A stretch of DNA of 64,000 bases from Candidatus Spongiisociaceae bacterium (lineage in GTDB: Bacteria > Actinomycetota > Acidimicrobiia > Spongiisociales > Spongiisociaceae), in contig OZ253564.1 in NCBI GenBank assembly GCA_965262915.1, positions 256,001 to 320,000 of the forward strand, written 5' to 3'. The notes under the pieces are model-generated. The model did no database searches. It was not told the DNA's origin and saw only the letters and a program-made list of their open reading frames with translations. A program made the position numbers and the translations under genes. Below are positions 16,664-56,790 of this stretch, in pieces; the stretch's first letter is position 1, and each line of letters opens with the position of its first letter.

Positions 16664-16925
16664 GGCTGCGCGCAAACGTGGGTTTTGGCTGTGCTGGTCG
16701 GTGTGTGGGTCATGATGTTACGAGGATTGCTCGGGCTGCAAAGTTATCGGGGTTGGTGAACCCGTGAGCGACGCGTCGTAGGACTCGGGTGGAGGTTGTT
16801 GATCCCTTCGATGGGTCCGTTGGATGCTCGCCTGTTGCCGTGGTAGGCCAGGATTTCTTCTCCCCAGGCGATGATGGTGTCCACAATGTTGTGGTATTCG
16901 CGGTGTCTGTCCGGTGGCGAAGAGC
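16664..16925 (-). pseudogene. Remnant of a different ISL3 (3' end)
   Basis: EYHNIVDTIIAWGEEILAYH...SNGPIEGINNL; terminal GGCTG end at 16664. Confidence 0.7.
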
Positions 16926-17071
16926 CGCTAAAGGGCCTCAACCTCAAAGCGGCTCTTCGGAAATGAGTGGGGAGTAGGGGATCTGCCAGGGGGAGTTGGA
17001 ATCCACCAGAAGTGAGGAGGGGTCCTCCATAATCGGGTGTTGGTAATGACATCCGAGGCAGGAGGACCCCT

Positions 17072-18370
17072 GTGGAAGCTGATCCTACGCGCATGTGCGA
17101 GAAGTTGGTAGGCCTAGGTGAGGTTGATCTGGTAGGGATCAACGACCCGGGCGAGGAGGCACCGTTGGAGGTGGTGATCCGGTCCCGCAAGCCCCGGCCG
17201 TTGTGTGAGTCCTGTGGCGGGTCGGTGTGGTCGAAGGGCTATCGGAGCGTGGTGTTGGTGGATTTACCGGCGTTCGGCCGGCCTGTGCGGCTGCGGTGGC
17301 GGAAACGGCGCTGGACATGTCCGAACCCGGACTGTGCGCTCAGATCGTTCATCGAACAAGACCCCAAGATTGGTCCCCAACGGGCGTTGTTGACATCCCG
17401 AGCGGCCCGGTGGGTGACCATCCAGGTGGGTGGGCGGGGCCGTTCGGTCGACGAGGTCGCCGCAGAACTTGGTTGTGATTGGCATACGGTGAACAAAGAG
17501 GTTGGCTGCTGGGGCGAAGCGCTGCTGGAAGCAGACACCGATCGGGTCGGGACCGTCGAAGCTGTGGGAGTGGACGAGACGTTGTTCTGGCGTCGGGGCC
17601 GTTGGCGTACCAAAGTCTGGTGCACCTCTGTCGTCGACGTTGGCGGCCACCAGCTGATCGACATAGTCCCTGGTAGAACAGCAGAAAGCGCCGCAGCCTG
17701 GTTCCGGTCACAACCCACCGAATGGTGTGAGGCTATCCGCTGGGCGGTGTTGGACATGTCCGGTTCGTATCGGAAGGCGTATGACAGGGTGCTACCGCAC
17801 GCGCTGCAGGTAGCGGACCCGTTCCACGTCATACGCCTCGCCAACCAGCGACTCGACGAGGTACGACGAAGAGTCCAAAACGAAACCCTCGGGCATCGAG
17901 GCCGCAAGGACGACCCGCTGTATCGGATACGCCGCCTCCTAACCGCCGCGCATGAGAGGATCAGCGACCGCGGTCAAACACGGCTGCGTGGTCTCCTCGA
18001 TGCTGGTGACCCCTACGGGGAAGTGCGCACAGCCTGGCACGCGAAAGAGACGGTACGAGGCATCTACGGGATCGAGAGTCCGGTCCTTGCTCTCCGATAC
18101 ACCCTCCAGCTCGCAGACGACCTCCAACACGAATCCTGCCCACCCGAGATCAACAAGCTAGGTCGCACCATCGCCCGCTGGACCCCCCAGATCACCAACT
18201 GGCACATCTCGAAGGTAACCAACGGACCCACCGAAGCCCTCAACAACCTCATCAAACGGATCAAACGAGCAGCGTTCGGGTTCCGCAACTTCGCGAACTA
18301 CCGAATCCGGGCCCTTCTCTACGCGGGGAAACCCAACTGGGACCTACTCCCATCGGTCACTCCCCACTGA
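17072..18370 (+). CDS. ISL3-family transposase
   Basis: Zn-finger Cys pairs, GVDET, LDMS, DPFHV, TNGPTEALNN, GFRN. Confidence 0.95.
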   Translation: MEADPTRMCEKLVGLGEVDLVGINDPGEEAPLEVVIRSRKPRPLCESCGGSVWSKGYRSVVLVDLPAFGRPVRLRWRKRRWTCPNPDCALRSFIEQDPKIGPQRALLTSRAARWVTIQVGGRGRSVDEVAAELGCDWHTVNKEVGCWGEALLEADTDRVGTVEAVGVDETLFWRRGRWRTKVWCTSVVDVGGHQLIDIVPGRTAESAAAWFRSQPTEWCEAIRWAVLDMSGSYRKAYDRVLPHALQVADPFHVIRLANQRLDEVRRRVQNETLGHRGRKDDPLYRIRRLLTAAHERISDRGQTRLRGLLDAGDPYGEVRTAWHAKETVRGIYGIESPVLALRYTLQLADDLQHESCPPEINKLGRTIARWTPQITNWHISKVTNGPTEALNNLIKRIKRAAFGFRNFANYRIRALLYAGKPNWDLLPSVTPH

Positions 18371-18389
18371 AATCCACTCATACTTAGAA

Positions 18390-18565
18390 GGTTCCTGGGC
18401 TGGGACGGGTCTGACCCAACTGAAATCTGGCTTTGTGCCTTTTCATCGATCTGTCGGCCTGTTCCCAGCTTGGGGGTGTAACCCCCTGGGCCGGGGCGGA
18501 TGTGACCTTATAGGAGCTTTGATCTTCCTCCACCGTGAGTGGCCTGTCCACCGCTTGCCGGGTCC
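18390..18565 (+). ncRNA. Predicted bridge RNA of IS110 A1
   Basis: Target loop ACTGAAATC (18419-18427) and TCATCGAT (18443-18450); donor loop ATAGGAGC (18510-18517) and TGAGTGG (18536-18542) match the flanks and own ends; RNA ends approximate. Confidence 0.8.
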
Positions 18566-18607
18566 GGGGATCGGAAATGATTCTATCCCGCAGAGGAGGA
18601 AGGTGTC

Positions 18608-19837
18608 ATGGGAGAAGATGGTCGGGTTGTGTTCGGTGGGGTTGACACCCATCGTGATACCCATGTTGCGGCGGTGGTTGATGGCGCCGGTCGGGTCCTG
18701 GGAACGGCACCGTTCGGGGCTGATCCGGTCGGATATGAGCAGATGACCAGGTGGTCCGGAACCCACGGGCACCTGCTCCGGGTAGGAGTGGAGGGCACCG
18801 GCAGCTACGGCGCCGGCCTAGCCCGCTATCTGATGGCGGCGGGCATCGAGGTGGTAGAAGTGAACCGGCCGAACCGGCAGCTACGCCGCCAGCGGGGCGG
18901 CAAGACCGACAGTGTCGACGCCGAGGCGGCAGCTCGGGCAGCGGCCTCGGGGCAAGCTACCGCAGTTCCCAAATCTGGTGACGGACCGGTTGAGTGCATA
19001 CGGATGTTGTTGATGGCCCGCCGCTCGGCTACCAAGGCCCGCACCCAGGCCGCTAACCAGATACATTCTGTGACCGTTACCGCACCTGAGCCGCTAAAAC
19101 GCCAGCTCAGAGGTCTCAAGCTCAAGGCTCGGGTTCGGGTCTGTGCCCGCTGGCGTCCCGGTGAAGCACAGACCACAGCCGCGTACGCGAAGATGGCTCT
19201 ACGCTACCTGGCCCGCCGATACCAATCCCTCGACACAGAAATCGCAGAACTCAAGATCGAGATCCGTCGCCTCTGCGCCGAGGCTAACCCGGCTCTGTTA
19301 GCCGCCACCGGTGTGGGCCCTGACAGCGCTGCTGCGCTGCTAGTCGCTGCCGGCGACAACCCCGGGCGGATGAAATCGGAACGGTCCTTCGCTGCGCTCT
19401 GCGGCGCCAGCCCCGTCCAGGCATCATCGGGACAGACCATCCGGCACCGTCTCAACCGGGGCGGCAACCGCCAAGCCAACAGCGCACTCTGGCGGATCGC
19501 TACCACCCGGATACGCCACGACGCTGCCACCAAAGAATACGTGGCACGGCGCCAAGGGGAAGGAAAGAACCGAAAAGAGATCATCCGCTGCCTCAAGCGG
19601 CACATCGCCCGAGAGGTCTACCGCCTCTTGACCAACCCGCCACCAACCCCGAACTGCGCCCGGCTCCGCCGCCGACGTCAACACGCCAACATCACCGTCA
19701 CCCAGGCCGCCCAACAGCTCGGAACCCACCCCAGCCGCATCTCCGCACTCGAACGCGGCCGAGACCACAACCACCAACTCGCCAGCCGATACCAGACCTG
19801 GCTCCTAACCCACCAACCGGCCCCATCACCGACTTGA
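18608..19837 (+). CDS. IS110 DEDD recombinase with C-terminal XRE-like HTH
   Basis: GVDTH, GVEGTG, KTDSVDA, SSG, RLNRGGNRQAN; tail ITVTQAAQQLGTHPSRISALERG. Confidence 0.93.
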   Translation: MGEDGRVVFGGVDTHRDTHVAAVVDGAGRVLGTAPFGADPVGYEQMTRWSGTHGHLLRVGVEGTGSYGAGLARYLMAAGIEVVEVNRPNRQLRRQRGGKTDSVDAEAAARAAASGQATAVPKSGDGPVECIRMLLMARRSATKARTQAANQIHSVTVTAPEPLKRQLRGLKLKARVRVCARWRPGEAQTTAAYAKMALRYLARRYQSLDTEIAELKIEIRRLCAEANPALLAATGVGPDSAAALLVAAGDNPGRMKSERSFAALCGASPVQASSGQTIRHRLNRGGNRQANSALWRIATTRIRHDAATKEYVARRQGEGKNRKEIIRCLKRHIAREVYRLLTNPPPTPNCARLRRRRQHANITVTQAAQQLGTHPSRISALERGRDHNHQLASRYQTWLLTHQPAPSPT

Positions 19838-19861
19838 CAACCATAGGAGCATCGATGAGCC

Positions 19862-20595
19862 CTCAAAGCTCGGGTCAAGATCTGCGCGCGGTTCCGACCC
19901 GGCACAGACCACACCACCACCGCCCACGCGAAGGGTGCTCTGCGGCACCTGGTCCGCAGATACCAGACGCTCACTGCTGAGATCACCGAACTCGACACAC
20001 AGATCACAGATCTCTGCGCGAAAGCGAACCCGGCGCTTTTGGCAGCTCGCGGGGTCGGCCCTGACACAGCAGCGGCTCTCCTCGTGGCGGCAGGCGACAA
20101 CCCCCAGCGCATGAACTCAGCCACAGCCTTCGCTGCCCTAATGTGGTTCCAGCCCCGTCCCCGCATCATCGGGGAGAACAGTCCGGCATCGTCTCAACCG
20201 GGGAGGCAACCGCAAAACCAACAACGCTCTGTGGCCGATGCGCTACCACCCGGATACACAACGACGCCCGCACCCAAGCCTATGTAGCCAAACGAGAAGC
20301 GAAGGCAAGAACCGTAAAGAGATCATCCGCTGCCTCAAGTGGCACATCGCCCGAGAAGTCTACCGGCTGCTGCCCAACCCGCCCCCAACCCCGAACTGCG
20401 CCCGCCTACACGCCCGCCGCCGGGCAAGCCAACATCACTATCACCCAGGCCGCCCAACACCTCGGAACCCGCCCGGCCCGTATCTCAGAACTCGAACTCG
20501 GACGCAACCACAACCACCAGCTAGCAACCCAATACCAGAACTGGCTCCGCACCCGCCAACCGGCCCCGTCCCCGATTTGACAACCATAGGAGCAT
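19862..20595 (+). pseudogene. Degenerate IS110 clade A copy A3 (3' half, frameshifted), interrupted by the ISL3 at 16951
   Basis: Coding sequence continues from 16927-16950 (LKGLNLKA/RVKICAR); right end TTGACAACCATAGGAGCAT again followed by CGATGAGCC (20596-20604). Confidence 0.85.
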
Positions 20596-21128
20596 CGATG
20601 AGCCCCATTAGTTACACTGGCCAGAGTTAGCGTTCTCATAAACAGCTATCTACCTGGGATAACAGGAAAACGGGCCCACAACTGTCGGTAAATGGGGATT
20701 ACAAACTTGTCTAGTCAAGTATGTAATCCCCTTCCTTTGCTCAGTCGTTCCGTCGGGTGTGTTCGACCAGACCTGCCGCGAATGAGCCTTCGGCGGCGGC
20801 GTCGGGGCCTGCCGACATTCGGCTGCTCGTGGACATACTCGGATACACCACCCCAGAAGAAGTAGAGGAAACCACCACATCCGTCTTCGGGAACGAACCC
20901 CTACCAGAAGGCTGCGTAGCCACCATCGCAACCCTGTTGACGTGACAGCACGCCCAGCATCCCGCGGTGCTCACAGTCGCGCTCCGGAACAGCTTGACAG
21001 CACCGAATGGTGGCCGGGGCCCCCGGTAGTGGCTCTGGACCGTGGTCGGGTTGCGGGCGGCGGCGTTGCGTGTGTACCAGTTGGGTGGAGTTCCCTGATA
21101 GGCCTAGGCGTTTGGCGCCTGTCCGGCT

Positions 21129-30543: not shown

Positions 30544-31321
30544 CCTATAATTGTACATTGTGCCTGGTAAAGGGCTAGATAGTCCTTCTGGTTATCACTT
30601 TTGCTGTACTTCGGTGTTCTTGCTATGCCTTTATGGGCGATCGGGTCGAGCCGGCGCGGCGTTCGGTAGGTAGTTGCGTGCGGTAACAACGACGACACCC
30701 CGATTGGGTTGAGCAGTGCAGCTATGCGTGGGGTGCCCGGCTGGGCCGGTCGAAGTCGTGGGCGGATACTAGCGGGCTTGGCCGGTTCCCAGACGACTGC
30801 TTCTGTTGCAAGGGGGAGTTGAACGAACGCTCGGACGCAACCGGGCTCCACAAGCGGCTGGTGGTATGGCAGTGGAGTCCGTTCTTGTGGTGTACCGGGG
30901 GGGCGGCGACTCCGAAGCCGGTTACATGCGTCGGTGGGGAGGCTTTCCGGGAAGGTCTGTGCCGTAGGGGGGAGGGAGGCCTGTGGGAGAAGAGCTGGGC
31001 GTCACTCTGTCGTCGAGCGGAGCATAGTGAAGGTGGGAACCGATGCGGGGTTGTCCACTCCCGCTGTGCCGAACCGTTCCGGGAAACCCGGAACGGTTCA
31101 TGGACGCCCATTAGACACACTCATACTGAAGGTGCCCTGTTTTGAGGGGGGCTGCTGCGATGATGAGGAGTGTTCCCCTGTGACCGGGGGGCGGGTCTGA
31201 CCCGACTAGACACCGGCACTTGTGTTGCCTTGCTGGGGATCTGTCGGCCTGTCCCCCGGTCAGGGGCGGGGTTCGGCTTCGAAGCGGATGTGACGTGATA
31301 GACACCCCAGGAGCGTAAATG

Positions 31322-32542
31322 TCAAGCTGCGGCTCGGTCGAGCATGGTTCGGTGTGCCCAGGCGGTGTGTTCGTCGTAGGGGGTTCGGTGTTTGAGGCAG
31401 CCGTGGAGGATGCCGACGAGCCGGTTGGCGAGGGCTCGTAGTGCTTGGTGGTGGAGGTCGCCGGCTGCTTTTCGTTGGTCGTAGAAGGCTCGCGCTCCTG
31501 GACTGTTGTTGAGGGAACAGAATGCCCATTGGTCGAGAGCGTCGTAGAGTCGCCGGTTGCGGACCTGGCGGGCAACGACGGCGTGTTTGCGGCCTGATGC
31601 GATGGTGACGGGCGACGTGCCGGCGTAGTTTCTGCGAGACTTGGCGCTGGTGTAGCGGTGGGGGTCATCCCCGAACTCACCGAGCGCCCGGGCGCCGAGC
31701 ACGGTACCGAGTCCTGGCTGGGAGTGGTAGATGACGGCGTCCGGGTGTTCTTCAAAATGGGTCTCGAGGGTTTCTTCGAGGTCGGCGATCTGGCGGTTGG
31801 TTTCCGCGATGATCTTGACCAGCGAAGCAACGATCGTCCCGAAGGCGTCCGCGACCGGCCCGGGTGCGGTGAGGTGGGCACCTCTGAGGCCTTTCTGTAT
31901 GCGGTGGGCAACCTTGTCGAGGTTGCGTTTCCGTCCGCCTCTCTGTACCGCTGCTCTGATCTGGGGAAGTGTCAGGCGGGCGCCCCGGGTGGGGGTGGGT
32001 GCCCGACCGAGTATGGCTAGGGCGTCGCGATGGGCCAGGTCATCGAACGTTTCCAGGGCTGCAGGGTAGTACTCGCGCAGCGCGTTGCGCATCTGGTTGG
32101 TGTGGCGGGTCCGCGCCCAGATCAGGTTCTGATGGGCACGGGCCATGATCTTGATGCCGTCCGCGTCTGGGCTGTCCCCGGCTACCGGACGGTGGTTGTG
32201 ACGGTCGGTTCGTACCAGATCGGCTAACACCTTGGCGTCTCCTCGGTCTGATTTGGCTCCACCCTGGCGGTGACGGTCCCGGTAACGGGAAACTGCCATC
32301 GGGTTGATCGCATACACCTGATAACCCGCCCCGACCAGAGCACCGACCCACAGACCACGGTCGGTCTCGATCCCTACCACCACCTCGGCCGCATCCGATG
32401 CGTGTTTGGCGACCATCTCGTGCAAGCGGGCCACACCCGCCAGGCCCTCCGGTAGACGGGAGAACCCCAGGCGGGCTCCCTCCTCGTCCAGCAGATACAC
32501 ATCGTGATGTCCCTCAGCCCAGTCGTTACCCACAAAGATCAT
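31322..32542 (-). CDS. IS110 recombinase, clade B
   Basis: GNDWA, GIETD, KSDRGDA, ASG. Confidence 0.95.
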   Translation of the reverse strand: MIFVGNDWAEGHHDVYLLDEEGARLGFSRLPEGLAGVARLHEMVAKHASDAAEVVVGIETDRGLWVGALVGAGYQVYAINPMAVSRYRDRHRQGGAKSDRGDAKVLADLVRTDRHNHRPVAGDSPDADGIKIMARAHQNLIWARTRHTNQMRNALREYYPAALETFDDLAHRDALAILGRAPTPTRGARLTLPQIRAAVQRGGRKRNLDKVAHRIQKGLRGAHLTAPGPVADAFGTIVASLVKIIAETNRQIADLEETLETHFEEHPDAVIYHSQPGLGTVLGARALGEFGDDPHRYTSAKSRRNYAGTSPVTIASGRKHAVVARQVRNRRLYDALDQWAFCSLNNSPGARAFYDQRKAAGDLHHQALRALANRLVGILHGCLKHRTPYDEHTAWAHRTMLDRAAA

Positions 32543-32589
32543 CCTTCGCCCCTTCCTTGCGCGGGTCCACTCTCTGCTGAGCTGTGGAG

Positions 32590-32770
32590 AACGCCTGGCG
32601 GCGACCTAGCAGATCAGTGCTCTGTGGCACGCCACCCCCTCAGCGCTACAAGCAGCCCTCACTCACCGGCCGGGGCACGATCTATCAGCAGGAATCAACG
32701 TTCCAGGAGCCTGGAGTACTCACCGGCCAGCCAGCTCAACCACCACACCCTCCCAGAAACACCGGCAGAA
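32590..32770 (-). ncRNA. Predicted bridge RNA of B1
   Basis: Minus-strand guides AGGCTCCT (32705-32712) and TGATAG (32682-32687) match the insertion site AGGCTCCTATCA; RNA ends approximate. Confidence 0.75.
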
Positions 32771-32882
32771 GTGGTGGACCCCCATTAGGAGCCTTGTGGA
32801 AGGTCCGCACCGTGAGTGTACTGTCCGCCGCTTCTTGCCAGGAACCCGTTTTGGTAAACGGTAGTCCACGGGGAGGTGGTTC

Positions 32883-34112
32883 ATGTCGGAGGATCGGGTT
32901 GATGTTTTCGGTGGGGTTGACACCCATCGGGACACGCATGTCGCGGCGGTGGTCGATGGCGTCGGTCGGGTGGTCGGCTCCGAGCCGTTCGGGGCCGACC
33001 ACACCGGATATAGGCGGATGGCGGCGTGGATGCAAGCGAAGGGGCAGCTGGTCCGAGTCGGGGTGGAAGGAACGGGTAGCTACGGCGCGGGGCTCGCCCG
33101 TTACCTGACCGAGGCGAACATCGAGGTGGTCGAGGTCATGCGTCCCAACCGGCAACTACGCCGCCGGAAGGGCGGCAAGACCGACAGCGTCGACGCCGAG
33201 GCGGCAGCCCGGGCGGCCGCCTCAGGTGAAGCAACCGCAGTTCCCAAATCCGGTGTGGGACCGGTCGAGTGTCTCCGGATGCTGCTGGCCGCCCGCCGCT
33301 CCGCGACCAAGGCCCGCACCCAGGCCGCCAACCAGATCCACGCCCTGGTGGTCACCGCCCCAGAGCCGATAAGACACCAACTGGCGGGCAAGAAACTCAG
33401 AGCACAGGTCAAGGTGTGCGCCCGCTGGCGTCCCGGCGAAGCACAGACCACCGTCGCGTACGCGAAAAGGGCGCTGCGCCACCTGGCCCGCCGATACCAG
33501 ACCCTCGAGGTCGAGATCACACAACTCAAGCGCGAGATCAGAGGTCTATGCGCCCAGGCCAACCCGGCGCTGCTGGGCGCCCCAGGCGTCGGCCCTGACA
33601 CAGCCGCCGCGCTGCTGGTCGCTGCCGGCGACAACCACGGGCGAATGAAATCGGAAAGGTCGTTCGCAGCGTTATGCGGATCCAGCCCCGTGCAGGCATC
33701 ATCAGGCCAGACAGTGCGGCATCGTCTCAACCGGGGAGGCAACCGCAAAGCCAACAACGCTCTGTGGCGGATAGCCACCACCCGGATACACAACGATGCC
33801 CGCACCCAAGCCTATGTAGCCAAACGAGAAACCGAAGGCAAGAACCGCAAAGAGATCATCCGCTGCCTCAAGCGGCACATCGCCCGAGAAATCTACCGGC
33901 TCATCACCAACCCGCCCCCAACCCCGGACTACACCCGCCTGCGCGCCCTACGCCAACAAGGAGGCATCACCATCACCCAGGCCGCCGAAGAACTCCGAAC
34001 CCGCCCGGCCCGTATCTCAGAACTAGAACTCGGCCGCAACCACAACCACCAGCTAGCAACCCAATACCAGAGGTGGCTCCGAACCCGCCAACCGGCCCCG
34101 TCCCCGATTTGA
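32883..34112 (+). CDS. IS110 recombinase, clade A, with C-terminal HTH
   Basis: Same motifs as 18608-19837; same 409 aa length. Confidence 0.93.
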   Translation: MSEDRVDVFGGVDTHRDTHVAAVVDGVGRVVGSEPFGADHTGYRRMAAWMQAKGQLVRVGVEGTGSYGAGLARYLTEANIEVVEVMRPNRQLRRRKGGKTDSVDAEAAARAAASGEATAVPKSGVGPVECLRMLLAARRSATKARTQAANQIHALVVTAPEPIRHQLAGKKLRAQVKVCARWRPGEAQTTVAYAKRALRHLARRYQTLEVEITQLKREIRGLCAQANPALLGAPGVGPDTAAALLVAAGDNHGRMKSERSFAALCGSSPVQASSGQTVRHRLNRGGNRKANNALWRIATTRIHNDARTQAYVAKRETEGKNRKEIIRCLKRHIAREIYRLITNPPPTPDYTRLRALRQQGGITITQAAEELRTRPARISELELGRNHNHQLATQYQRWLRTRQPAPSPI

Positions 34113-34127
34113 CAACCATAGGAGCAT

Positions 34128-36726: not shown

Positions 36727-37105
36727 GTCTTCGTCTGACCCTAGGTCTAATTCGCGACGTAGTTCCCTGCGACTTGGCCCGAGCCCAGGGGAGCAACCCA
36801 GCAACAGTTGGGCGAGCGGATGGGCATCTCTCCCCAGGCAGTCCATCACTACTGGACATCCCGGTAGCACCCAGCCTGTTGCCCTGCTGGGTGGCTCTGA
36901 TGTGTGATGATCGGAACTGGTTGTTCACCTGGGGTCGGCAGCGCTCAGCCAGCCTATTACTGAGATAGCCCCCTGTGGGGTGTGATATCATCGCGGTGGT
37001 TGGATGCCAGCAGACCGCCTAGTCTTCCGATGACGATTCTGCTCACCGCCACCGACTTTCCAACCGCAGACTGTGACCGTTGATAAGCGGCTCTTCGGAA
37101 ATGAG

Positions 37106-37303
37106 ATGCTTCTATGTGTCTATCAGGTCACATCCGCTTCGAAGCCGAACCCCGCCCCGGACCGGGGGACAGGCCGACAGATCCCCAGCAAGGCAACACA
37201 CGCGCCGGTGTCTAGTCGGGTCAGACCCGCCCCCCGGTCACAGGGGACCACCCCGATCATCGCAGCAGCCCCCAAGAAAACAGGGCACCCTCCAGTATGA
37301 GTG
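37106..37303 (-). mobile_element. 198-bp transposase-less clade A IS110 derivative next to a 17-bp ISL3 IRL stub (37089-37105)
   Basis: Reverse complement of 31118-31305, then TAGAAGCAT (right-end-like). Confidence 0.8.
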
Positions 37304-37419
37304 ATTTTCGCTGGTCGCCATCAGGGACTCTGGTCGTGGGCGGCGCCCCGGTGCTGGTGTGAGCCGCAGTCGGCGCCGCGGCGGCAGTGGTGGGCGCCGC
37401 GGCCGTTCTGGCCGGTCGA

Positions 37420-55357: not shown

Positions 55358-56790
55358 GGCTCTTCGGAAATGAGTGGGGAGTAGGGGATCTGCCAGGGGG
55401 AGTTGGAATCCACCAGAAGTGAGGAGGGGTCCTCCATAATCGGGTGTTGGTAATGACATCCGAGGCAGGAGGACCCCTGTGGAAGCTGATCCTACGCGCA
55501 TGTGCGAGAAGTTGGTAGGCCTAGGTGAGGTTGATCTGGTAGGGATCAACGACCCGGGCGAGGAGGCACCGTTGGAGGTGGTGATCCGGTCCCGCAAGCC
55601 CCGGCCGTTGTGTGAGTCCTGTGGCGGGTCGGTGTGGTCGAAGGGCTATCGGACGGTTGTGTTGGTGGATTTACCGGCGTTCGGCCGGCCTGTGCGGCTG
55701 CGGTGGCGGAAACGGCGCTGGACATGTCCGAACCCCGACTGTGCGCTCAGATCGTTCATCGAACAAGACCCCAAGATTGGTCCCCAACGGGCGTTGTTGA
55801 CATCCCGAGCGGCCCGGTGGGTGACCATCCAGGTGGGTGGGCGGGGCCGTTCGGTCGACGAGGTCGCCGCAGAACTTGGTTGTGATTGGCATACGGTGAA
55901 CAAAGAGGTTGGCCGCTGGGGCGAAGCGCTGCTGGAAGCAGACACCGATCGGGTCGGGACCGTCGAAGCTGTGGGAGTGGACGAGACGTTGTTCTGGCGT
56001 CGGGGCCGTTGGCGTACCAAAGTCTGGTGCACCTCTGTCGTCGACGTTGGCGGCCACCAGCTGATCGACATAGTCCCTGGTAGAACAGCAGAAAGCGCCG
56101 CAGCCTGGTTCCGGTCACAACCCACCGAATGGTGTGAGGCTATCCGCTGGGCGGTGTTGGACATGTCCGGTTCGTATCGGAAGGCGTATGACAGGGTGCT
56201 GCCGCACGCGCTGCAGGTAGCGGACCCGTTCCACGTCATCCGCCTCGCCAACCAGCGTCTCGACGAGGTACGACGAAGAGTCCAAAACGAAACCCTCGGG
56301 CATCGAGGCCGCAAGGATGACCCGCTGTATCGGATACGGCGGCTCCTAACCGCTGCGCATGAGAGGATCAGCGACCGGGGTCAAATACGGCTGCGTGGTC
56401 TCCTCGATGCTGGTGACCCCTACGGGGAAGTGCGCACAGCCTGGCACGCGAAAGAGACGGTACGAGGCATCTACGGGATCGAGAGTCCGGTCCTTGCTCT
56501 CCGATACACCCTCCAGCTCGCAGACGACCTCCAACACGAATCCTGCCCACCCGAGATCAACAAGCTGGGTCGTACCATCGCCCGCTGGACCCCCCAGATC
56601 ACCAACTGGCACATCTCGAAGGTAACCAACGGACCCACCGAAGCCCTCAACAACCTCATCAAACGGATCAAACGAGCAGCGTTCGGGTTCCGCAACTTCG
56701 CGAACTACCGAATCCGCGCCCTTCTCTACGCGGGGAAACCCAACTGGGACCTACTCCCATCGGTCACTCCCCACTGAAATCCGATGAGCC
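55358..56790 (+). mobile_element. Intact ISL3 with 8-bp TSD AATAAACT
   Basis: TSD at 55350-55357 and 56791-56798; near-identical to the 16951 copy. Confidence 0.96.
55479..56777 (+). CDS. ISL3-family transposase
   Basis: Three substitutions relative to 17072-18370 in the supplied translations. Confidence 0.95.
   Translation: MEADPTRMCEKLVGLGEVDLVGINDPGEEAPLEVVIRSRKPRPLCESCGGSVWSKGYRTVVLVDLPAFGRPVRLRWRKRRWTCPNPDCALRSFIEQDPKIGPQRALLTSRAARWVTIQVGGRGRSVDEVAAELGCDWHTVNKEVGRWGEALLEADTDRVGTVEAVGVDETLFWRRGRWRTKVWCTSVVDVGGHQLIDIVPGRTAESAAAWFRSQPTEWCEAIRWAVLDMSGSYRKAYDRVLPHALQVADPFHVIRLANQRLDEVRRRVQNETLGHRGRKDDPLYRIRRLLTAAHERISDRGQIRLRGLLDAGDPYGEVRTAWHAKETVRGIYGIESPVLALRYTLQLADDLQHESCPPEINKLGRTIARWTPQITNWHISKVTNGPTEALNNLIKRIKRAAFGFRNFANYRIRALLYAGKPNWDLLPSVTPH

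Follow-up and report, generated by a model that had tools for sequence, protein, structure and literature searches.

An IS110-group insertion sequence in a sponge-associated Acidimicrobiia genome probably finds the right ends of ISL3-family elements through a bridge RNA

What leads one insertion sequence to settle, copy after copy and in a single orientation, inside the terminal repeat of another? This question is raised by a locus of Candidatus Spongiisociaceae bacterium (Actinomycetota, Acidimicrobiia), the genome of which, as studied here, is one contig of 5,055,038 bases (OZ253564.1). We analysed 64,000 nucleotides of it, that is, positions 256,001 to 320,000 of the forward strand (hereafter 'the window'; window coordinates are used unless called genome coordinates, and features lie on the plus strand unless stated otherwise). 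Between 16943 and 20604, the sequence reads as a series of insertion sequences nested in one another, and the innermost of these, an IS110-group insertion sequence of 1478 bp which we call A1, interrupts an ISL3-family element within its right inverted repeat. We consider it very probable that a bridge RNA, encoded by the 233 nt of its left end, leads A1 to its insertion site in ISL3 right repeats. This view is carried by the anatomy of the element, by a match between guides and flanks that covaries among paralogues, and by repeated independent insertions into ISL3 ends.

The point of insertion can be read by comparing the filled site with an empty one. An unoccupied ISL3 copy (55358-56790), 98.8% identical to the occupied one, carries the intact target CTGAAATCCGATGAGCC at 56774-56790, as an earlier note on this DNA had it, and this is the only intact occurrence in the window (chance expectation 0.01). 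At A1, the two halves of the target stand apart as CTGAAATC (18367-18374) and CGATGAGCC (19853-19861); the split reported in the earlier note is real, although its left half begins at 18367 and not at 18369. A1 spans 18375-19852 or, equally, 18376-19853, its limits being ambiguous by one nucleotide because a single C is common to both junctions. It separates the outer 9 bp of the ISL3 right inverted repeat, CGATGAGCC, from the inner part, which by our reading of the sequence ends ...CCCCACTGAAATC at 18374, and the point of insertion lies 9 bp from the tip of that repeat and 4 nt past the stop codon of the ISL3 transposase gene. The host element shows (i) a DDE_Tnp_ISL3 transposase, encoded by an open reading frame (ORF) of 432 residues at 17072-18370 (Pfam PF01610, 9.1e-58, along with Zn_ribbon_ISL3 and HTH_Tnp_ISL3), (ii) imperfect terminal repeats of ~25 bp, and (iii) 8-bp target duplications, as is characteristic of the ISL3 family; its body extends over 16951-18374, the left inverted repeat beginning at 16951 with GGCTCTTCGGAAATGAGTGGGGAG.

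The left end of A1 contains what appear to be two guides for exactly this site. They lie in a predicted target-binding loop (18403-18464), composed of a basal stem (18403-18415 with 18453-18464), an internal loop and a GGC/GCC cap (18429-18431 with 18437-18439), and are framed by a scaffold consisting of GGGTCTGACCC (18407-18417) and ATCTGTCGGCCTGT (18449-18462). The putative left target guide, ACTGAAATC (18419-18427), has the same sense as the left flank at 18366-18374, and the base following it is a U opposite the shared C; the putative right target guide, TCATCG (18443-18448), is the reverse complement of CGATGA at 19853-19858. Compared with its own flanks, A1 matches at 9/10 positions of the left and 6/6 of the right guide. 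Coordinates and letters of both guides, and the scaffold which A1 has in common with its paralogue A2 (see below), agree with those given in the earlier note. A second predicted loop (18494-18556), the donor-binding loop, holds guides that match A1's own ends: the left donor guide ATAGGAGC (18510-18517) is identical to the right end at 19843-19850, and the right donor guide GTGAGTGG (18535-18542) complements the first bases of the left end, (T)CACTCAT, with a G-T wobble at each end.

Judged by those defining features of the group that can be tested at the sequence level, A1 is an IS110-group element. Its recombinase gene (18608-19837, 409 residues) encodes a DEDD_Tnp_IS110 and a Transposase_20 domain (Pfam PF01548, 2e-24, covering profile positions 2-149 of 155, and PF02371, 3.8e-19), and the protein matches the transposase chains of ISCro4 (2.4e-13) and IS621 (1.5e-10), with the ...P-x-SG motif aligned and the similarity stopping at residue 346. 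The left end measures 233 nt and the right end extends just 15 nt past the stop codon; the two ends, CACTCAT... and ...GGAGCAT, form no terminal inverted repeats, and there is no multi-bp target duplication, only the single C. The short right end (19834-19852) carries TTGACA at 19834-19839, and the promoter-like arrangement TTGACA-17-CATACT, with CATACT at 18379-18384, arises solely across joined A1 ends, the integrated left junction reading GTCACT there. Exactly one C stands between the halves in 53/61 empty-site candidates over seven loop types, and in 17/18 of those for the A1 type; because such candidates mostly retain one C, the crossover overlap appears to be this single C. The recombinases of the A1 clade, that of A2 included, possess an extra C-terminal helix-turn-helix (HTH_31/HTH_3; in A1, HTH_31 at 2.8e-07, residues 351-386, window 19658-19765). 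The match to the solved IS621 and ISCro4 proteins and to ~55%-identical relatives ends near residue 346, so that the helix-turn-helix lies outside it.

A census of the whole genome places A1 among many equivalents. A total of 17 elements carry the A1 guides, and 16 of them occupy the same position of ISL3-family right ends, all 16 pointing the same way as the ISL3 transposase gene. The 17 elements comprise a subfamily A1a (8 copies, 93-100% identical to A1) and a subfamily A1b (9 copies with ~80% DNA identity to A1, recombinases of 78% protein identity, and identical guides). The ISL3 family accounts for 61 BLAST matches in the genome and for 47 right ends, 16 of them occupied. Where the left half reads ACTGAAATC and the right half CGATGA, A1-type elements occupy 11 of 23 ends (one of the 11 now showing CTGAGATC as its left half), and five of the nine ends combining the same left half with CGAAGA, i.e., with one mismatch to the right guide, are likewise occupied. 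Neither the eight variant ends reading ...CTGAAACG or CTAAAACG nor the seven other variants hold an insert. The count of ISL3 right ends with and without inserts, proposed in the earlier note, hence gives 16/32 for ends with a matching left half vs 0/15 for variant ends, a contrast that overstates independence because the ISL3 copies are related. In another Acidimicrobiia genome, 2/2 A1-type elements (loci L083 and L087, 96% and 78% protein identity) have the same guides and flanks; A1-type loops, the presence of which mostly at unrelated sites would have refuted the earlier note, are thus found at the ISL3 site in 16/17 cases here and in both cases there. Among 29 genomes of the family, a pattern search located the exact junction 18-mer in this genome only, and the one-mismatch matches in five other family genomes belong to a paralogue with guide AACTGAAATT (AAATT-type). 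A remnant in a genome of the same genus (G007, L042:1470-1570) consists of the inner part of an ISL3 right repeat and left-end positions 1-53, ending in ACTGAAATC and joined to GATGAGCC; seemingly, everything from the guide-encoded copy of the left half-site up to the real right junction has been deleted.

The correspondence of guides and flanks extends well beyond A1. The genome carries 34 left-end scaffolds in 11 loop types, and in every type the flanks follow the loops. For a permutation test, we used the 13 loop types for which both ends were found, which stand for 42 uninterrupted elements of this genome or of relatives' loci. Identity of guides to their own flanks amounts to 7-9/10 for the left and 5-6/6 for the right guide, mismatched pairings average 5.06 and 2.75, respectively, and 0/100,000 permutations matched the observed total, a figure that overstates independence because the loop types are related. 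Despite this kinship the signal is plain, and the guide/flank match exceeds chance; a chance match as the explanation was rejected both on this test and on the expected site counts (0.01 for the intact target and 0.00 for a repeated 24-mer described below). The base facing the shared C is a C in some types (e.g., the ACGCGAAAAC type) and a U in A1 and two other types.

Within the window, the comparison is best made with A2, a paralogous IS110 element at 31117-34127 (recombinase gene 32883-34112), the left end of which is interrupted at ~31303-32787 by a further element, X. The A2 scaffold (31193-31252) holds the guides TAGACACC (31207-31214) and CTGGGG (31233-31238), and the flanks of A2 read ...TTAGACAC to the left and CCCCAGG to the right of the element. 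The recombinases of A1 and A2, both of 409 residues, are 77% identical (316/408), helix-turn-helix included. The common scaffold and the different guides, each fitting its own flanks, support the proposal of the earlier note that these close paralogues constitute a natural retargeting pair.

Is the left end likely to form the two-loop RNA assumed so far? Since the fold of the whole left end as a single sequence is not unusually stable (z = -1.49), the structure was assessed on 20 aligned left ends, drawn from various loop types of this genome and of relatives. In this alignment the two target-guide blocks, which coincide with the places given for the A1 guides in the earlier note, vary, while the donor blocks ATAGGAG(C) and GTGAGTG are invariant or nearly so, and RNAalifold places a stem, a large internal loop and the GGC/GCC cap around the variable blocks. 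The two-loop structure specified for testing has 90% of 520 cells paired, vs 39-52% after sliding the partners by 1-3 columns; 10 pairs are changed on both sides, and 0/500 shuffles match any of these measures. The basal stem of the donor loop, which was specified by hand and then tested via pair counts, is 80.9% paired, with 5 pairs altered on both sides.

Taken together, this leads us to propose the following course of events, in which the existence of the RNA, a circular intermediate and the chemistry are all inferred from what has been published on the mechanism of IS621. The first loop of the RNA would offer the 9-nt left guide ACUGAAAUC, followed by the U opposite the shared C, and the right guide, the two jointly spelling ACTGAAATC-C-GATGA, and the second loop would present guides for A1's own joined ends, ATAGGAGC..C..ACTCAT. 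The RNA-loaded DEDD/serine recombinase would then join an A1 circle to the ISL3 end, with crossover at the single shared C and with A1 always entering so that it reads in the same direction as the ISL3 transposase gene. Contigs from two runs of metatranscriptome libraries (one study) span 18282-18516 and 18367-18559 and leave the recombinase gene unreached; comprising the junction and the left end, they fit a left-end RNA as well as read-through from ISL3, and prove neither. Among the contigs of four sequencing runs, neither a joint across A1 nor a circle junction was reported; one contig, passing from ...AAATCC into GATGAGCC, represents an unoccupied ISL3 end from elsewhere in its data set.

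Several observations weigh against this proposal. The RNA-library contigs cannot show transcription, strand or ends, the stretches that they leave uncovered carry no information, and the libraries may contain DNA. RNAalifold did not recover the second (donor) loop from the 20 left ends, Rfam 15 yields no family within 16900-20700 at E up to 1, and the low stability of the single-sequence fold and the kinship of loop types and of ISL3 copies have been mentioned above. Moreover, 5/16 occupied sites read CGAAGA and thus mismatch the right guide once, the left-guide register relative to the scaffold differs by one nucleotide among paralogues, and the guides of one A1-type copy in 17 (genome 3665109) disagree with the site where it lies. 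This off-target element (genome 3663633-3665110) is flanked by ...CAAAGAACCC-C and CACCGCC, resembling, in degenerate form, the site of a paralogue with guide AAAAGAACAC; guidance in trans by the RNA of a paralogue, or gene conversion, is possible.

The locus also records that ISL3 right ends were struck here more than once. Downstream of A1 follows A3, a decayed older IS110 of the same clade (19862-20595; BLAST match to A1 positions 745-1476, 77% identical, with frame-shifted protein matches), of which a short left piece can be read at ~16926-16950. Past the right end of A3 stands an orphan CGATGAGCC (20596-20604), the tip of an older ISL3 right repeat the body of which is gone. The earlier note had seen in it a second insertion at the same kind of site, and indeed the 24-mer CAACCATAGGAGCATCGATGAGCC is found twice in the window, with 0.00 occurrences expected. 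The younger ISL3 lies within the A3 recombinase gene; the 8-bp target duplication CTCAAAGC made by its insertion (left copy 16943-16950, overlapping the A3 remnant; right copy 19862-19869) brackets the composite, as had been stated, and records only that event. Read from the nesting, the history would be that A3 entered an old ISL3, of which the 9-bp tip is all that is left, that the younger ISL3 then inserted into A3, and that A1 finally inserted into the younger ISL3. A fragment of a different ISL3-family transposase (PF01610, 4.2e-05; 16745-16925, minus strand) abuts the truncated left piece of A3.

How, then, did so many ISL3 ends come to carry A1-type elements? The earlier note had suggested that A1 might ride on ISL3, in which case ISL3::A1 would move as a composite unit and each move would leave a new 8-bp duplication. 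To this end, 13 ISL3::A1-type composites with full-length ISL3 were compared (78 pairs). Perfect 8-bp duplications, all different, bracket 10/13 of them, 3/13 being without matching duplications, and one pair (genome 468030 and 2152731) is alike in both parts, with 98.6% identity for IS110 and 97.0% for ISL3. Composites with different duplications, to which the earlier note had looked as a sign of hitch-hiking, do therefore exist; the hitch-hiking does not follow from them, since ISL3 inserting first accounts for the duplications, just as the duplication at our locus shows an insertion of ISL3 only. Moreover, the pairwise identities of the two parts are uncoupled (r = 0.19), and the pair named above is the only one compatible with co-duplication. 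Six A1b copies are mutually 99.25-100% identical, whereas their ISL3 hosts share 88.3-98.6% (15 pairs); IS110 copies that are 100% identical (genome 3995418 and 4456815) reside within ISL3 hosts of 93.9% identity; and, conversely, A1 and two A1b copies, only 80.6-80.8% identical, reside in ISL3 hosts that are 98.0-98.8% identical. In the ISL3 tree, occupied copies are scattered among free ones, and a repeat split by A1 retains just 9 bp at its outer end. As the identities are uncoupled, the occupied copies scattered and the duplications all different, the composites are best understood as repeated insertions into resident ISL3 copies; hitch-hiking as the main mode of spread appears largely refuted by these comparisons, and we regard it as very improbable.

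Gene conversion must be weighed along with it, in that a few old insertions into ISL3 ends might have been spread by duplication of ISL3, with the IS110 copies being homogenised later. Recombination among copies is likely in a genome so packed with repeats, the 3/13 composites without matching duplications point to rearrangement, and the copy at the foreign site (genome 3665109) could be a conversion product. However, conversion would have to homogenise a 1.5-kb IS110 element to 99.3-100% and yet leave the adjoining 1.4-kb ISL3 at 88-94%, two diverged IS110 subfamilies occur within one young ISL3 clade, and the pairing of guides and sites recurs in ten other loop types at other sites, so that we give this explanation equally little credence. 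Least probable of all is that the recombinase itself recognises the ISL3 repeat, with the identity of loop and flank as a by-product: a candidate reader does exist in the C-terminal HTH_31 (residues 351-386), which lies beyond what is shared with IS621, ISCro4 and the ~55%-identity relatives, but A1 and A2 are 77% identical, this helix-turn-helix included, and nonetheless occupy unrelated sites that go with their respective loops, A1b stands at the same distance from A1 (78% protein identity) as A2 and yet has the same guides and site, and 13 loop types covary with their flanks.

Guidance by a bridge RNA being the interpretation that we favour, its consequences for both partners can be considered. 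It is plausible from the position of the insertion that A1 immobilises ISL3: because the contiguous right end is lost while the transposase gene is intact, an ISL3 copy with A1 in it is probably unable to transpose for as long as A1 stays. Open frames of 420 or more residues are retained by 3/13 occupied vs 15/24 free ISL3 copies, a contrast in which age and immobilisation are inseparable because ten of the free copies form one recent identical clade. A1, for its part, would gain a harmless landing site that is present in many copies and spreads with ISL3, and, again judging from its position, it may profit from read-through transcription of the ISL3 gene. The eight variant ISL3 ends that read ...CTGAAACG/CGATGAGCC or ...CTAAAACG/CGATGAGCC (genome 179705, 480775, 540785, 677242, 1144289, 1603289, 1721703 and 3228657), as compared with ...CTGAAATC/CGATGAGCC at occupied ones, are changed at two positions beside the crossover; the 0/8 occupancy of these ...AAACG ends is suggestive only, because all eight form one ISL3 clade.

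A1 is not the only element in this genome found inside another. The element X that interrupts A2 is a different IS110-family element (31303-32787, to within about 2 nt, minus strand; ORF of 406 residues at 31322-32542 with PF01548 and PF02371). It is placed inside the left end of A2 exactly in the donor-guide-coding ATAG/GAGC, with TAG on either side, and A2 adjoins another copy of X, 4 nt from the tip of its right end. The genome yields 13 BLAST matches to the X family: three at the same A-clade left-end position, one in an A-clade right end, and ~8 (a subfamily of 85%) in CTGACAC heptad repeats; the same junction of X and A-clade left end was seen in two other genomes (loci L055 and L059). 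An A-clade IS110 that carries the guides TTGACAAAC and CATAGAAA interrupts the right end of another A-clade element (TTGACAAC/C) at L054:1560-1760 (minus strand), at L092, and in this genome near 4427098. A paralogue with the guides AAAAGAACAC and CAACGCAA (genome 715372, 1292074 and 1730357) sits within a coding motif that is conserved in the C-terminal part of a distant IS110-family recombinase, with fragments 32% identical to A1 directly upstream of it. Two paralogues occupy neighbouring sites of one repeat, ...GCGCGAAAA-C-GTGGGT..GGGGTGAAAT-C-CTTGGAA.GGGGGTGAGGCCCAGCTGG (genome 541943, 2009343 and 2806495), and this sequence probably represents a terminus of still another repeat element. 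Finally, a 197-bp miniature element (37100-37320, minus strand) combines an A2-type left end, including an intact target loop, with a 10-bp right end, ATAGAAGCAT; beyond it stands CTCATTTCCGAAGAGCC, an ISL3 left-repeat tip, and its flanks do not fit its guides.

These arrangements suggest a set of directed relations, with A1 aimed at the right ends of ISL3, A2 at the tip of X on its right side, and X at ATAGGAGC where this codes for a donor guide in the A clade's bridge-RNA gene, as well as at the right end that matches it, with one further lineage aimed at the A-clade right end TTGACAAC/CATAGGA and another at the coding motif of a distant IS110 recombinase. It is thus tempting to speculate, although we would regard it as rather doubtful for now, that the genome harbours a web of RNA-guided parasitism among transposons in which guides and targets co-evolve, with ...CTGAAACG as an ISL3 escape variant and, at the off-target copy, a bridge RNA acting in trans on the ends of a relative. 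The IS110 lineages directed at other insertion sequences, and at each other, are the more interesting part of this picture than A1 alone, and, if the arms-race interpretation were true, the co-evolution of guides and targets between mobile elements would become testable from sequence data alone.

Irrespective of that, one genome here provides a natural retargeting series, i.e., pairs of guides and sites for bridge recombinases from the little-studied Acidimicrobiia, including mismatch-tolerant cases and a one-nucleotide register shift that is not predicted by the rules for IS621. It also indicates that elements guided by a bridge RNA can become specialists for the terminus of an unrelated transposon, fill half of the ends that match, and probably freeze the copies so occupied, which would amount to transposon-on-transposon interference mediated by a programmable RNA.

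Comparison is made foremost with IS621 of E. coli, an IS110-group element the bridge RNA of which is described by Durrant et al. (2024; PMC11208160), with structures 8wt6 and others. According to this paper, the match of loop and target in IS621 covers 8-9 nt of the bottom strand on the 5' side and 4-7 nt of the top strand on the 3' side, and in IS110 circles a promoter is formed across the joined ends. As far as that account goes, A1 resembles IS621 in (i) its recombinase with DEDD and Transposase_20 domains, (ii) a long left end with a two-loop RNA, predicted in the case of A1, (iii) a second loop matching the element's own ends and the same guide geometry, (iv) a candidate sigma-70-type promoter, the A1 motif of which would be completed only across joined ends, and (v) naturally different target guides among paralogues. 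A1 differs in that its target is the end of another insertion sequence, that of IS621 being a repetitive extragenic palindromic (REP) element; in that its crossover overlap appears as a single C, where IS621 has the dinucleotide CT; in that the core position of its left guide is a U (wobble) and not a Watson-Crick partner; and in the ~60 extra C-terminal residues of its recombinase, which include the helix-turn-helix. IS621 is, moreover, known by experiment, A1 from its sequence.

Insertion into the terminal repeat of another transposable element has a reported parallel. IS4321 and IS5075, of the IS1111 group, are said to insert site- and orientation-specifically inside Tn21's terminal inverted repeats, in work attributed to Partridge and Hall in 2003. 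A1 shares with these two that a DEDD-family element lies inside another element's terminal inverted repeat. However, A1 belongs to the IS110 group, its host is an ISL3-family insertion sequence and not a Tn3-family transposon, and it comes from a sponge-associated Acidimicrobiia genome and not from a proteobacterial plasmid. According to PMC11208160 and PMC11187229, the guide RNA of IS1111 elements is located in the right end, and their inverted repeats are subterminal.

ISPpu9, ISPpu10 and other REP-targeting IS110 elements are likewise described as landing on REP repeats. As in those cases, a multi-copy and selectively neutral repeat would be selected by a bridge RNA, which for A1 is a prediction; unlike those cases, the repeat chosen by A1 is itself mobile and the insertion probably disables the end of that transposon. 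Since the target repeat is a mobile element, the supply of sites for A1 depends on the activity of another transposon.

Natural reprogramming among IS110 relatives is stated in PMC11187229. A full-text word search of one literature collection returned no paper on an IS110-group element aimed at ISL3 ends, although supplementary target tables (Supplementary Table 1 of Durrant et al.; the logos of Siddiquee et al.) could list one; the passages of PMC2770080 on IS110 and ISL3 make no mention of ISL3-end targeting, and the terms 'ISL3' and 'inverted repeat' do not occur in 10.64898/2026.08.14.744561. The mechanism itself, described in 2024, is already known, and A1 is a clear natural case of it in which the ends of ISL3 elements are the target.

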